A stretch of DNA of 64,000 nt from Octopus vulgaris. Taxonomy: Eukaryota. The stretch spans positions 46,996,001-47,060,000 of the forward strand of contig OX597820.1 of NCBI GenBank assembly GCA_951406725.2, in the 5' to 3' direction. The notes under the pieces were generated by a model. The model saw nothing but the letters and a program-made list of their open reading frames with translations, did not search any database and was not told the origin of the DNA. Shown piece by piece: positions 2,165 to 60,313 of the stretch. The position numbers and the translations under genes are program-made. The stretch's first letter is position 1, and each line of letters opens with the position of its first letter.

Positions 2165-2340
2165 TCTAGCCACTACACACATTTTTTTTCTCTCCTTGTG
2201 TTTTCTGTGTACCTTTCTGTAGAAGAGCATAGGCTCGAAACGTAAAATACTTTTTCTATTCCTGAGCGTTATATTAATATATCTGTTTGTTTTGTACACC
2301 ACTCGTCTTCGTCTTTTGTTTTTTTCGTAAACTCTCCCTA
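2165..2340 (+). mobile_element. Non-coding Penelope-pLTR-like unit, hammerhead family F1
   Basis: CTTT-CTGTAGA-A-GAGC atag GCTC-GAAA-CG-TA-AAA at about 2213-2247; 3' end abuts (TA)n; homologous copies at 27040, 32615, 43283, 55205, 60178. Confidence 0.75.
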
Positions 2341-2472
2341 TATATATATATATATATATATATATATATATATATATATATATATATGTAGGTCCCGGGT
2401 TGAGTCGGGGTTAACCACAGTAAATAAGGTACTCAATACATAGCAGAGTAAATTAATTTATTATATAGAAGG

Positions 2473-2523
2473 AGCTTCTACAGGACTAGAACTGTTTCAT
2501 TCAAAAGAAATCATCAGGAAGCT
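2473..2523 (-). ncRNA. Type I hammerhead ribozyme motif (F7)
   Basis: Reverse complement AGCTTC-CTGATGA-TTTCttttGAAT-GAAA-CAGttctagtcCTG-TA-GAAGCT: 6-bp stem I, canonical core, stem III; lies in a unique unit (2388-2720) bounded by (TA)n. Confidence 0.75.
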
Positions 2524-3089
2524 AGTTGACAAGAGTTGTTTTGGCATTTATACATTTAGGCAGGTTTAAAGGGGGGGGACTTTTTGGGGGTAGGCATGGC
2601 GCAAAACTATCAGTATTAGGGGAGTGGTCAAAGGAATCGGTGGTAAAGTAGATAAAAGAATAAATAAAAGAATAAAAGAATAAATAGAAAAATAGAGTTT
2701 TAGGTAAGTAAGGAGACTCTCATATATATATATATATATATATATATATATATATATATATATATATATATATATATATATATATATATATATTAGGTAA
2801 GTAAGGTATATATATATATATATATATATATATATATATATAGGGGGTGGGAGGTACATGTGCGCGTGCGCAACAGTAGCTCATTAGAATATAACACAAA
2901 CACAAAGAGAATCATAAAGCGTTGTCAAATTGTCTCAACTCCACGGCTAAGGCTTTCAAAGTGCTGCACATTTATCTACATTGCACAGGTTTTAGTTATT
3001 CCGATTTACGCCGTACCCTATATAAATACATACTATTTCATAAAGTACATACTGACGTATTAAATTCAGATCAAGAAATTTATTAATAA

Positions 3090-3607
3090 CACAGTTCTAT
3101 ATTTAAGAGATGAGGAATCATGTACATTATTTACATTTGACGGATATTTGTCCTCATCTTGTTTTTTTTTATTAAACACAACGTTTCGGCTGATATACCA
3201 TTCAGATCACTGCTTGGAATCGAACTCGGAATCTTGGGGCTAGTAGCCCGCGCACTTAACCACTACGCCATATGCCCGTGGGTATAATAATAATGATAAT
3301 AATAATAATAATAATAATAATAATAATAATAATAATAATAATAATAATAATAATAATAATGATGATAATAATAATAATAATAATAATAATAATAATAATA
3401 ATAATAATAATAATAATAATAATAATAATAATAATGATAATGATAATAATGATAATAATAATATAATGATAGATAATGATAATAATAATATCGAAAAATA
3501 CCTGGGAATGAGAAGCCAGGTTCGAAATTTCCCCAAGACATCTGCTGAAGGCTGGAGGGTATATCAGCCGAAACGTTGTATTAACAACAAACAAGATGAG
3601 GACAAAT
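3090..3607. mobile_element. Inverted-arrangement Penelope-pLTR module with tRNA-like head, (AAT)n and hammerhead (F3)
   Basis: Minus arm 3090-3285 has a tRNA-like head plus the hammerhead 3' half and tail; plus arm has (AAT)n and a hammerhead at 3537-3582 (CTGCTGA-A-GGCTG..CAGCC-GAAA-CG-TT); homologous to 11700-12045. Confidence 0.75.
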
Positions 3608-3765
3608 AACTTAGCGGTTCAGCAATAGAGACCGATAGAACAAGTACCAGGCTTTAAAAAAAATTATTGGGATCGATTCATTCGACTAAAAATTCTTCAA
3701 GATGGTGTCCCATCATGATCGCAGTCTAAAGACTGAAACAAGTAAAAGATAAGATATAAAGATAG
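3607..3765 (+). mobile_element. SINE family A, 3' part
   Basis: aacttagcggttc...gactgaaacaagtaaaagataag tail. Confidence 0.8.
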
Positions 3766-3997
3766 CCTTTAGAAAATGTAACTAAATTTACATAAGACTG
3801 AACTAATTAATATAATGCGAAGAAAAGGTTTTGAGTAATGGCTAATATTTTTTAATTCTTCAGAGTGCAATGGTATTAATCGTCAAATGTTCTAGGCTCA
3901 GCTGGCTCCGGCTGACAGCACCCAGTAAGGCACTCGTCTATAGGATTCCAGACTAGGTCTTTGGCAGCAAGCTGATTAATGTGGCAACAGTGATTTA

Positions 3998-4205
3998 AAG
4001 CGGCAAGCTGGCAGAATCGTTAGCATGTTGGCCCAAATGCTTTGCGGTATTTCGGCCGTCTGTACATTGTTCAAATTCCGCCGAGGTTAAATTTGCTTTT
4101 CGTCCTTTCGGAGTCGATAAAATCAGAACCTGTTGAGCACTGACGTCGATGTAATCGACGTATACCTTCCCCCAGAATTGCTGGCCTTGTACCAAAATTT
4201 GAAAC
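3998..4205 (+). mobile_element. SINE family B
   Basis: ggcaagctggcagaatcgttagc (A-box-like), gttcaaattcc (B box) and the cctttcggagtcgataaaat central domain. Confidence 0.8.
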
Positions 4206-4519
4206 TGATGTGGTAAGAGTGATTGACAACACACTGACAATTCAGTGACGTCATCAAAGATCGCTGGTCACTTGGGACACTCGACGTCTATCCTCAACAA
4301 TTTACTGTTCTGGCAATATAATTTCTGTTCTGACTGCGACGTAATCGAAAAGTAGCTCCACTCTAGCTTATTAAGCACCAAAATACCTGCTTCCTGAACC
4401 AATAGAGGCGAGCACCGACGATATATTGACACGAGGCATAACTTATACTGGATAAAGGGTAAGGTCTTGCAAGTATGACACGCAAATTCGTGAAGCGTTC
4501 CACATAACTTCGTATGCGC

Positions 4520-57470: not shown

Positions 57471-57494
57471 TGAGTGTCTATTTAATCACTTTAC

Positions 57495-57810
57495 CATTTA
57501 CCTTTTACTTGTTTCAATCATTGGACTGCAGTCATGCCAAGGCACTGCTTTGACAAATCGGCCTCAGTATTTGTTTTTATAAGTCTGGTAATTATTCTAT
57601 CGGTCTTTTATGCCGAACCGGTAATTTATGCCTCGTAAGCAAACCAACATCAGTTGTCAAGCAGTGATGGAGGACGAAGACACACTCTCTCTCTCAATCA
57701 CACATACACACACACATATGTACGTATATATGCATAAATACGACGGGCTTCCACACAGTTTCCGCCTGCCAAAATTCACTCAAAAGGCATCCGTTGACCC
57801 AGGATTGTAG
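57495..57810 (-). mobile_element. SINE family A, diverged
   Basis: ttttacttgtttcaatcattggactgc...cgacgggcttccacacagtttccg. Confidence 0.75.
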
Positions 57811-59567
57811 GAAAATCTCCGGGTGGTCGACTTTACTTTTTCTCATTTCAGAGTCGATAAGCAATAAAGTAGTGGTGTTAAGATGGCTTCTTTCTCTCTG
57901 AAAAAAACCCCCAAAAAATCGACTTTGATCAAACCTAAAGAGGGATGAACTTCACTACGTTTTCAAACATTCAAGACACGTTGTATGTCACGAAGATACC
58001 CTTATAACTTCATCAAGATTTGATGTCTCGAGGCAACTATGTCTTCCCGTCTCGTACGATCACTTAGATCTCACCCTGTCTGTCTGTTTCTGTTGTTTCT
58101 CTTTGTCAAACATAAAACTATTGTTCGAAAATAAACTTTGTCACAAGCGTCCTATCTTTCGTGACTTAAGACCAGATCTTCAGATTCACTACTGCTGCCA
58201 ATTTCCATATTAGTCTACGTTAACTGCTTTCTCGTCTCGAAGGACAATGTTAGGGTTACTGTTCTAATATTTAGTGAGGGTTTTGACAGGACTGTACCGG
58301 TACTGAAATGTGTGAAACTATTCTAAATCACTCGAATTTTGACACTTAACCTTGGGGAGTCTTTCCCCTAAACGTATAATGTATATTGTTTTCACCAGAA
58401 CTTTGCACCATATGAAGATACGGCGTCTATGTGTGAATGTATGCATGCATGTATGTATGTATGTATGTATGTATGTATGTATGTATGTATGTATGTATGT
58501 GTTTATGTATGTGCTTATGCATGTATGTATGTTCATACGTGCACATGTACGCGTGCTTTTAGCTTTCTATGTAGGTTTGCAGATGAAGTACGTGTATATT
58601 GCTATCGCTTAAGTGAATCACGTACATCATATACGTACGAATGTATGTGACAGTATTAGCATATTAGTTAGATACAGCCTAAGTATAATTTACGTTCAGC
58701 AGTGTATATATATATATATATATATATATATATATATATATACATATACATATATGAATATTTATATGTATATATACTTATGTATGTATAGAAATAAGTA
58801 TATATATATATATATATATATATATATATATATATATACGTGTATTTATATGTACGTATGCATACATACATATGTATGTAAGTGTGTAAGTATATATATA
58901 CATATATATATATATATACATATATATATATACATAAATATATATACATATATATATATATATACATATAAATATATATATATATATATATATATATATA
59001 TATATATATATATATATATATATATATATGAAGAAGATTTTTCCTTGTGTAGTTTGTCTTGTACTCTGTTTTTCGTTGTAAAAAAATGGTTTGTTCTACG
59101 CTTGTTTTTCCGTTTTCGTTTCTCGTTGAGTTCTACGTCTACTTGTGGTGTCCTGTACTCACGTATATATATTTATATATGCATGTATATATACATGTTG
59201 GTGTAGGTACGTACATATATGTATGTATGTATGAATATATTTTATTTATTACACTATATATATATACATGCACACAAACACACATGATAGCTTTCTGTGT
59301 CCGTCTACGAAATCCACTCATAAGGTTCAGCCGGTGCGGGCCTATAGAAGTCATATGCCCAAGATGCTATGCAGTCGGACTGAACCTAAAGCTATACAAA
59401 CTCCATGATTTTAGGTATAATTACACCATTTGTCTACAGCAAGAAATTTTCTCCTTGACAAAACACAGTGGATGGTTTCCTTACGGGTTCGAATATGCCT
59501 CAACCATATTTGAACTGGTAATAACCTTGTATTTATACATTTGTGTGTGTGTATGTATGTATGTATA

Positions 59568-59963
59568 TGGCTGTGTGGTAAGTAACTTGCTTACCAACCA
59601 CATGGTTCCGGGTTCAGTCCCACTGCGTGGCATCTTGGGCAAGTGTCTTCTGCTATAGCCCCGGGCCGACCAATGCCTTGTGAGTGGATTTGGCAGACGG
59701 AAACTGAAAGAAGCCTGTCGTATATATATATGTATATATGTATGTGTGTGTATATGTTTGTGTGTCTGTGTGTCCCCCCCCCCCCTAGCATTGCTTGACA
59801 ACCGATGCTGGCGTGTTTACGTCCCCGTCACTTAGCGGTTCGGCAAAAGAGACCGATAGAATAAGAACTGGGCTTACAAAGAATAAGTCCCGGGGTCGAG
59901 ATGCTCGACTAAAGGCGGTGCTCCAGCATGGCTGCAGTCAAATGACTGAAACAAGTAAAAGAG
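59568..59963 (+). mobile_element. SINE family A, full length
   Basis: Complete head, caTcttgggcaag core-like segment, body and tail. Confidence 0.9.
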
Positions 59964-59971
59964 TATATATA

Positions 59972-60174
59972 CAGTAATCCCTCGCCATATCGCGATTCCC
60001 TCACTGAGGTATATCATTTAAGTTTATGTCGATTCCTCCGTGGTTTTGCATTTATAATCAAATAAATATATACAAATTATGAAAATAACAGTACTCTACT
60101 GGTTCTACTTCGCAGATTTTCACCCATCGCAGGTGGTTTTGGAACGTCACGACAACGATAGTCGGAGATTACTG
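59972..60174. mobile_element. pogo/Tigger-like MITE
   Basis: TA-CAGTAATCCCTCG ... ggagATTACTG termini, about 200 bp. Confidence 0.6.
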
Positions 60175-60177
60175 GAT

Positions 60178-60313
60178 CCGTTTATTTCTGCGTTCCTTTC
60201 TGTCGAAGAGCGTAGGCTCGAAACGTAAAAGACTTTCTCACTTCCCAATCGTTAAACTAATACATCTTTTTGTTGTTTACACATCTGTCTTTTGTTTTTT
60301 GTAAATTCTCACT
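60178..60313 (+). mobile_element. Hammerhead F1 unit
   Basis: CTTT-CTGTCGA-A-GAGC gtag GCTC-GAAA-CG-TA-AAAG at 60196-60231; ends at (TA)n. Confidence 0.8.

Follow-up and report, generated by a model that had tools for sequence, protein, structure and literature searches.

A family of hammerhead-like motifs with uridine at core position 6 in a dispersed octopus repeat

A repeat family inserted at (TA)n tracts

The 64-kb stretch of octopus DNA analyzed here (hereafter, the window) harbors six copies of F1, a dispersed repeat of ~195 nt inserted at (TA)n, which adjoins the 3' end in five of the six copies and the 5' end in three (Table 1). Each copy carries a minimal type I hammerhead motif in which the core reads CUGU-N-GA, with uridine at position 6 (U6) in 6/6. 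With at most three copies in any other family, F1 is the commonest hammerhead-like family in the window, as the original prediction had stated. All six copies span the uncut motif. Their 3' ends lie 85-95 nt downstream of the predicted cut in five copies and 74 nt downstream in the copy with a tail deletion; when ends and cleavage site were compared, the ends did not fall at the predicted cut. Since the ends of PAc, a Poseidon element of Anolis, also lie away from its cut although its hammerhead is active, this comparison does not discriminate.

Table 1. Features discussed in the text, in window coordinates
Feature	Span	Strand	Motif	Core	C3	Remarks
F1 copy, 5' part shortened	2163..2338	+	2213-2248	CTGTAGA, 2217-2223	2217	predicted cut after 2244; (TA)n adjoins 3' end
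F1 copy, decayed (G13, U15.2), U17	27044..27226	-	27135-27170	CTGTAGA, 27160-27166	27166	(TA)n adjoins 3' end
F1 copy, second subfamily (different 5' flank)	32617..32810	-	32704-32739	CTGTTGA	32735	inner stem I pair broken; 3' end A-rich
Short copy, inverted, of the 32735 element's 5' end	32837..32864	+				head to head across (TA)n
F1 copy, second subfamily	43284..43448	+	43343-43378	CTGTTGA	43347	tail deletion of 20 nt; (TA)n on both sides
F1 reference copy, near-complete	55206..55400	-	55296-55331	CTGTCGA, 55321-55327	55327	U6 at 55324; predicted cut after 55300; (TA)n flanks both ends
F1 copy, most of 5' part missing	60177..60312	+	60196-60231	CTGTCGA	60200	(TA)n adjoins 3' end
F2 copy (A6 outgroup)	10659..10844	+		CCGACGA at 10716		
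F2-like copy	48170..48316	+		CCGAAGA at 48190		
F2 copy, canonical core	56389..56581	-		CTGACGA at 56525		
Tail motif YGAGC	55277..55281	-				~20 nt past predicted cut site

F1 has the anatomy of Penelope-type minimal hammerheads and is likely a terminal-repeat piece of a Penelope-like retrotransposon. No reverse transcriptase or endonuclease frame lies beside any F1 copy in the window; tblastn with four Penelope-type proteins against the window gave a sole match (11051-11658), which belongs to another family, and protein searches with F1 translations, sense and antisense, returned no match. Among six frames of the window, Pfam placed only a Tc1-type transposase fragment above its cut-off. A Naiad origin, considered on account of the (TA)n targets, was not supported: the F1/F2 motif had no match in the Craig 2021 supplement, where line breaks can hide one, and F1 does not resemble the Naiad_Obim ends or the Naiad_Ovul start displayed there, though other Naiad families may exist. 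F1 does not have the layout of a non-LTR retrozyme, a tandem array with one hammerhead per unit: none of the six window copies is in tandem, and a single contig joint in sequencing run X9 is suggestive of a head-to-tail pair, a rare arrangement.

Conservation of the U6 core within and beyond the window

The predicted CTGT-N-GA core is present in every copy, with A, U and C each found twice at position 7. Around it, the stems are largely kept, as anticipated: stem II (GAGC/GCTC) is unbroken in all six copies and stem I (CTTT/AAAG) in four, the outer pair being gone in copy 2217 and the inner pair in 32735, which is also the exception to an otherwise constant run of at least three stem I pairs beside the core (5/6). 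An unpaired nucleotide separating 9 from 10.1, the G10.1-C11.1 pair and a stem II within 3-7 pairs are common to all six, and GAAA-NN-U-H with palindromic 15.1-16.1 to all except the decayed copy 27166. A pattern derived from these same six copies, searched with up to two mismatches, matched six times in the window and never in any of 100 shuffles. A profile search of the window added a weak tail-only match (38026-38074, E 0.052) and no seventh hammerhead-bearing copy, so the six were not selected for U6. Cells of the constrained motif depart from the majority in 5/180 cases as against 63/499 for the tail (Fisher p 6.5e-5, a value overstated owing to the relatedness of the copies and the T-richness of the tail). 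The subfamilies have different 5' flanks and a nearly unchanged motif, and the tails are 70-92% identical between copies, which lends no support to the claim that F1 is still amplifying.

The same picture holds in the contigs of three public sequencing runs; a fourth, X22, comprised raw reads and was set aside, its 12 low-complexity reads all falling outside the motif and being uninformative. No change is listed at position 6 in the three runs, and on our reading of the table A6 amounts to about 5% or less, so that the family state in these contigs is U6 rather than A6. Position 7, predicted to be variable, takes all four bases (depth-weighted: U 29/43/44%, A 26/25/23%, G 13/8/8%, C the rest), and A17 is replaced by U in 14/19/16% and by G in less than 2%. 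These two patterns match the published roles of position 7 as a spacer and of position 17 as anything but G. Positions 15.2 and 16.2 show CpG-type decay (4.5-8.4%), and summed depth is highest over the motif and lower to either side. Conserved motif, free position 7 and G-avoiding position 17 together fit selection on the fold, not necessarily for U6: most F1 positions vary as little (run X1 lists 40 changes over 205 places), and a fixed U6 is by itself no sign of selection for that base.

Family F2 retains A6 in 3/3 copies, as originally proposed, and has C4 in 2/3. Since F2 is homologous to F1, its sequences support the view that U6 is derived in F1, family-wide. Two other accounts of U6 were rejected. 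A register shift restoring A6 fails because C3-G8 would be lost, and a splice-acceptor role (UAG when position 7 is A) because A occupies that position in only about a quarter. Odd cores also occur in several other hammerhead-like families of the window, which could mean that catalysis is generally relaxed there.

The first core box of minimal hammerheads (min-HHRs), CUGANGA, is altered by U6 in all six F1 copies. The published min-HHR descriptor requires cuganga and would miss F1, which supports the expectation that canonical descriptors overlook the family. In the window, the only copy to pass with no mismatch was F2 copy 56525; when one core mismatch was allowed, four of the six F1 copies passed, with U6 their only mismatch. 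Surveys based on cuganga thus undercount, with one strict match here against four more with U6. The 150 Rfam matches listed, of 472 for the window, are microsatellite look-alikes, and neither an F1 copy nor the canonical F2 copy was assigned to a hammerhead family in local Rfam scans; as the canonical copy was missed too, the miss of F1 is not due to U6. The F1 motif had no match in metagenome, viral and prokaryote collections, and no natural A6U hammerhead turned up in the papers searched, Lünse et al. 2017 not among them.

A proposed slowed ribozyme and its alternatives

The original prediction regarded A6 as near-invariant in hammerheads. Changing it is reported to lower the rate 10-100-fold, and in a type III hammerhead all single and double mutants of the CUGA region had low activity, the C3-G8 swap excepted. 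The near-invariance holds only in part, given that the effect is milder than that of changes at C3, G5, G8 or G12 and that a natural A6C hammerhead has been published, from bacteriophage Bcep176 (Perreault 2011, PMC3088659; Naghdi 2020, PMC7151607). The cleavage rate of this C6 ribozyme is 0.051 per min with 3 mM Mg and 0.3 per min with Mn. In a fast natural hammerhead, the rate with A6C fell to 3.6e-6 per min at 0.3 mM Mg. In PAc, the hammerhead needs the element's protein (Frangieh 2024, PMC11167929), hammerhead mutants leave insertion in vitro unaffected, uncut RNA is the main substrate and no RNA-seq ends map to the cut site (PMC11167929). The rates after A6 changes, the natural A6C and insertion from uncut PAc RNA make a slowed F1 ribozyme plausible, and we predict on these grounds that it is slowed rather than dead.

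We therefore favor, with a probability of roughly 0.55, the reading that the F1 motif is a slowed self-cleaver of a Penelope-like terminal repeat, dependent on a dimer or on protein, with uncut RNA serving as template. Two F1 motifs would pair via the palindromic ACGU to give stem III, a mode of pairing proposed for minimal hammerheads, and U6 would weaken the uridine turn and make cleavage slower by at least one to two orders of magnitude. Reverse transcription would begin at a nicked (TA)n target, ~75-95 nt downstream of the cut, cross the uncut motif and end at the 5' end of the RNA ~100 nt upstream, yielding short copies with the motif in their center. With copies made from uncut RNA, the element would lose little by cutting slowly, and a U6 that had become fixed in a founder would be tolerated.

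Folding predictions do not give the hammerhead as the ground state of F1 RNA. Its dimer topology can be drawn, yet the predicted minimum lies elsewhere: dimers constrained to it come to -5.3 to -13.9 kcal/mol, whereas the best dimers reach -20.3 to -27.0, and the predicted probability of stem II is below 0.35 in five of the six copies (180-nt context). There is no significant covariation: the one compensatory pair between F1 and F2 is equaled in 378/500 shuffles; stem II, invariant in sequence, never covaries. This invariance and the weak predicted fold are what one would also expect of the main rival, in which the motif is catalytically dead and kept only because its structure or sequence is a signal to the element's protein, for instance to bind or to position the template, with U6 marking lost catalysis. 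The indifference of PAc insertion to hammerhead mutants, the lack of RNA-seq ends at its cut and the uncut motif in all six F1 copies point the same way. However, a mere signal sits uneasily with a position 7 that is four-way free beside fixed neighbors, with a position 17 that is only A or U, and with the retention of C3-G8, G12 and the palindrome, and a natural ribozyme with a pyrimidine at position 6 has measurable activity. We consider this rival unlikely, although the likeliest of the alternatives; should it be right, the finding shrinks to an annotation note.

A further reading makes U6 an adaptive brake or switch. Here U6 would pair with A15.1, flanked by G5-C15.2 and U4-G16.2, in a monomer rod that hides the dimerization palindrome until a protein releases it. 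In the isolated 38-nt domain, U6-A15.1 indeed has a predicted probability of 0.41-0.98 in five of the six copies, and an A placed at position 6 in silico brings G5-C15.2 down to at most 0.10; yet with longer flanks U6-A15.1 is mostly lost (at most 0.15 in a context of 40+70 nt). A second, likewise protein-released off state may be provided by the conserved tail motif YGAGC (5/6 F1 and 3/3 F2 copies), which could pair with G12 and the 3' strand of stem II (GCUC-G12). Its Y alternates between G-U (five) and G-C (four) pairing among nine copies, and the pairing is predicted to dominate in two of the six F1 copies; however, it does not exceed shuffles, and the motif is shared by the A6-bearing F2. 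While U6 stayed constant as position 7 changed repeatedly, the equal invariance of most other F1 positions weighs against a special role, and we regard such a switch as improbable. Similarly improbable is the broader proposal that octopus Penelope-like hammerheads have been tuned down, with U6 as a selected brake that locks the monomer and, together with a conserved downstream anti-stem-II motif, renders cleavage protein-conditional and preserves uncut template for internal reverse transcription. If a brake is at work, hundreds of thousands of ribozymes with non-canonical cores would be invisible to current descriptors.

Least probable is a neutral relic, a broken-hammerhead master copy amplified with no selection on the RNA: common descent trivially explains the shared U6, and the CpG-type decay would suit it, but the motif has stayed nearly unchanged across subfamilies whose tails and 5' flanks have diverged.

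F1 bears on the question of what Penelope-like hammerheads do for their elements. These hammerheads cut slowly, and the one element that has been reconstituted can insert in vitro without its own; F1, a successful family in which a core change predicted to lower the rate is fixed and the rest of the motif kept, offers a ready-made natural comparison with F2 and its A6. If six copies per 64 kb were typical of the ~2.8-Gb octopus genome, F1 would number on the order of 10^5 copies, a rough extrapolation.

Relation to known hammerheads

Bcep176 resembles F1 in its natural pyrimidine at position 6 and in the predicted loss of core hydrogen bonds. It is a single phage sequence with C6 and with measured activity, low in Mg and good in Mn, whereas in F1 U6 is fixed in a high-copy animal family that lacks a stem III of its own. 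PAc and F1 both have a hammerhead motif ~90 nt upstream of the 3' end, AT-rich targets and copies that span the uncut motif; reverse transcription of PAc begins 85-92 nt downstream of the cut (by subtraction from positions in PMC11167929). The PAc reading frame begins within stem II, and PAc activity, which is protein-assisted, has been measured, whereas F1 has no conserved start in stem II and no parent frame was found.

Among Penelope-type hammerheads, that of the Acropora digitifera Neptune element shares with F1 a four-pair stem II that is almost the same in sequence (GGGC/GCUC versus GAGC/GCUC), a 4-nt loop and the CGU palindrome, but has canonical A6 (PMC4209133 Table S1, Fig. S3). Neptune elements are reported to prefer microsatellite targets, and F1 has this insertion bias, a trait not unique to Neptune; the likeness is a lead only. 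More generally, min-HHRs reside in terminal repeats of Penelope-like elements in metazoans (Cervera and de la Peña 2014, PMC4209133), where single copies are dispersed by the thousand in many families (PMC4209133). F1 agrees with their consensus in the extra nucleotide that separates 9 from 10.1, G10.1-C11.1 and the U-rich 5' flank (PMC4209133), and with min-HHRs in GAAA-CG-U-H, the palindromic ACGU (15.2-16.2) and the short stem I. It differs in its CUGUNGA core, the rows of Fig. S3 of PMC4209133 that we consulted (56 motifs per its legend) having A at position 6. The family-level core variant reported there is U3-A8 (PMC4209133), against U6 in F1.

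The F1 motif and its U6 core

The motif scan and ungapped layout recovered six copies of F1, a dispersed repeat carrying a minimal type I hammerhead motif, in the window (copies are named by the position of C3). The motif opens with CTTT of stem I, followed by CTGT-N-GA, a single additional purine, GAGC, a loop of 4 nt, GCTC, GAAA, CGT, the predicted cut nucleotide and AAAG. As the original prediction held, all six copies carry U instead of the usual A at core position 6 (U6), with A, U and C at position 7 in two copies each, and the stems CTTT/AAAG and GAGC/GCTC are largely kept, stem I losing a pair singly in copies 2217 (outer) and 32735 (inner). 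Departures at G13 and U15.2 are confined to copy 27166. A search pattern built from the copies themselves matches exactly these six, with no match in 100 shuffles. A profile search found no further motif-bearing F1 copy in the window, which thus holds no hidden A6 member.

Contigs of public sequencing runs X1 (24,030), X4 (15,497) and X9 (9,656), representing three organism codes, were mapped on copy 55327 at 80% likeness; run X22, 12 low-complexity reads, was set aside. Position 6 is absent among the 40 changes listed (seven further changes lie beyond these). Comparison of the listed changes with per-kind tallies places U6-to-C and U6-to-G both below 2% and A6 at ~5% at most, provided that changes are ranked by support (U6-to-A may be one of two unlisted changes); among listed changes that do not stem from X22, the weakest reaches 5.1% at most. 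The consensus beyond the window is thus also U6. These frequencies carry the biases that rare variants are collapsed in contigs, that depth does not equal copy number and that sequences resembling the reference map preferentially. Weighted by depth, position 7 is U in 28.7/43.3/44.4%, A in 25.6/24.9/23.2% and G in 12.7/7.9/8.2% (X1/X4/X9), the rest being C; A17 is replaced by U in 14.0/18.5/15.7% and by G or C in <2%, and CpG-type decay at positions 15.2 and 16.2 affects 4.5-8.4%.

Homology between F1 and its sister family F2 spans motif and tail (profile cross-searches, E 4e-8 to 9e-12). All three F2 copies keep A6, as predicted, and so does the related copy at 62805; U6 is therefore derived and older than the F1 subfamilies, of which there are at least two, differing upstream of stem I. 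Judged from sequence, U6 is genuine: a derived variant of the core, shared across the family, in a very common repeat.

Element anatomy and neighbouring repeats

A complete F1 is ~195 nt long (reference 55206-55400), with the predicted cut mid-element; tails of the copies are 70-92% identical. (TA)n adjoins the 3' end in 5/6 copies and the 5' end in 3/6, and copy 32735 has a short head-to-head inverted arm. The reference copy is stop-free over its full length in one frame per strand (55217-55399, minus; 55203-55400, plus); protein searches with both strands' translations returned no relatives, so these frames are probably compositional. No parent frame for F1 emerged from tblastn of the window with Penelope-type proteins or from protein searches with F1 translations. 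Anatomy and target site make a Penelope-like origin of F1 highly probable.

Penelope-like elements are reported to occupy 6.83% of the O. vulgaris genome. The window's Penelope-type frame remnant shares 61-67% identity with longer proteins, of which most carry an annotated RT domain; its sole named relative among the 120 matches listed is an Octopus sinensis protein (70% identity), in keeping with an octopus-like host. It belongs to a family other than F1, with its own hammerhead at 11950, whose single-copy cores CCGATGA (11950) and CTGCTGA (3542, C6) likely reflect individual decay. The inverted arms directly upstream of copy 55327, an arrangement typical of Penelope-like insertions, carry motifs with a 3-pair stem II, a 4-nt loop, a palindromic ACUC-GAGU stem III and a long stem I, the minus arm having the core CCGATGA (C4). 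C4 (CCGA) also occurs in 2/3 F2 copies (10716, 48190), so several families of this genome share relaxed positions in the uridine turn. The partial tandem repeat contains a hammerhead-like stretch, TTGTCGA...GAAACGTA, which would be U3 plus U6, with a second CTGAAGA box ~30 nt beyond; the stretch can be parsed in more than one way, and the 23810 relative carries A at this site. This repeat may be a second U6 family.

Repeats and hammerhead-like motifs in the window
Feature	Position	Strand	Remarks
F1 copy	C3 at 2217	+	cut to 3' end, 94 nt
F1 copy	C3 at 43347	+	cut to 3' end, 74 nt (from profile match)
F1 copy	C3 at 60200	+	cut to 3' end, 85 nt
F1 copy	C3 at 55327	-	cut to 3' end, 94 nt
F1 copy	C3 at 32735	-	cut to 3' end, 91 nt
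F1 copy	C3 at 27166	-	cut to 3' end, 95 nt
F2 copies	10716, 48190; 56525	+; -	
Penelope-type frame 3' remnant, (AAT)n, minimal hammerhead	11015-12016	+	frame remnant 11015-11676
Relatives of 11015-12016	3490-3608; 3117-3205	+; -	
Two inverted arms of another repeat	55448-55680		each ends at (TA)n, each with hammerhead-like motif
Partial tandem repeat	8343-8757, 9220-9633		97% identical; related 23727-24081, 54080-54160, 59030-59217
Further hammerhead-like motifs	62805; 54030, 42107	+; -	first box canonical; single-copy and partly decayed
Tc1/mariner-type transposase fragment	15093-15368	-	Pfam HTH_Tnp_Tc3_2 above cut-off
~400-nt repeat family, likely SINE	14580-14957, 22769-23174, 38952-39358, 42703-43101, 59566-59977, others		commonest complex repeat

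Expected activity and proposed mechanism

Core position 6 is where the uridine turn uses a purine, so U6 should weaken the turn. The claim that A6 is near-invariant needs qualifying. Its mutation is reported to cost 10-100-fold, vs >100-fold for C3, G5, G8, G12, A14 and A15.1 (PMC4075628, citing earlier work), and PMC7151607 and PMC3088659 describe a natural C6 ribozyme, from phage Bcep176, with cleavage rates of 0.004-0.05 per min (1-3 mM Mg) and ~0.3 per min (Mn). At 0.3 mM Mg, A6C slows another hammerhead to 3.6e-6 per min (PMC7151607), and a saturation study found all CUGA-region mutants low in activity except the C3-G8 swap (PMC9901934). The literature covered yielded no measured A6U rate. 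We favour, at roughly 55%, the reading that the F1 motif is a slowed but working ribozyme, predicted to be active, in which U6 is tolerated.

At constrained motif positions, 5/180 cells depart from the majority, vs 63/499 in the tail (Fisher p 6.5e-5, overstated given the relatedness of the copies and a tail prone to slippage). In X1, summed contig depth is highest over the motif (~8.4 million; tail 4.3-5.6 million, upstream ~2 million), and a large contig group diverges from the reference exactly at stem I's outer boundary. Only position 7, the known spacer, varies four ways, and G is avoided at position 17, a requirement of cleavage (PMC4075628). Against selection we count the covariation, which is not significant (one compensatory pair, equalled in 378/500 shuffles), and the active fold, which is not the predicted minimum in monomer or dimer. 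The main rival reading, that the motif persists as a dead structural signal, is less likely.

That U6 is an adaptive brake appears doubtful. In the isolated domain, a U6-A15.1 pair is predicted with probability 0.41-0.98 in 5/6 F1 copies, hiding the palindrome, and A placed at position 6 would lower the neighbouring G5-C15.2 pair to <=0.10; the predicted effect fades as flanks lengthen. A tail motif, YGAGC, lies 19-28 nt downstream of the cut, is kept in 8/9 F1/F2 copies and could pair with GCUC-G12, a pairing no better than shuffles in these copies. Both are possible off states, leads and not findings. Nor does the fixation of U6 prove that U is selected: across 205 places of the element, X1 has just 40 listed changes. 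A neutral relic is least plausible of all.

According to PMC11167929, the main substrate of a reconstituted Anolis element is uncut RNA, with reverse transcription starting internally 85-92 nt past the cut; its hammerhead depends on the element's own protein for cleavage, and hammerhead mutants leave insertion unaffected. F1 geometry fits this element, the predicted cut lying mid-element, 74-95 nt before the 3' end. In the favoured scenario of a slowed ribozyme, F1 reverse transcription would begin at a nicked (TA)n site, ~90 nt beyond the motif, pass through the uncut motif and stop near the RNA 5' end; with such read-through, a slower ribozyme would cost the element little.

Comparison with known hammerheads

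Rfam gives no hammerhead for an F1 copy, nor for a canonical F2 copy. Published natural variants of the core include U3-A8 (PMC4209133), C6 (PMC3088659) and C4; the paper text searched, apart from Lünse et al. 2017 (a study of small variant hammerheads in Penelope-like elements), showed no natural A6U. The displayed 3' end of Naiad_Obim (PMC8557442 supplement) has a CTGTTGA box with a hairpin and GAAAC after it; a CTGATGA box follows further along. The expectation that canonical descriptors would miss F1 is borne out by the published descriptor for the minimal hammerheads (min-HHR) of Penelope-like terminal repeats, which requires cuganga (Cervera and de la Peña, PMC4209133); 4/6 copies pass a descriptor-type scan allowing one core mismatch. 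F1 shares the anatomy of these minimal hammerheads, which are thought to act as dimers and to cleave slowly (PMC4209133, PMC6765202). It shows every min-HHR sequence feature tested save the CUGANGA box, and for that reason falls outside strict membership; in function, we would expect it to work like a minimal Penelope-type hammerhead, with cleavage predicted.
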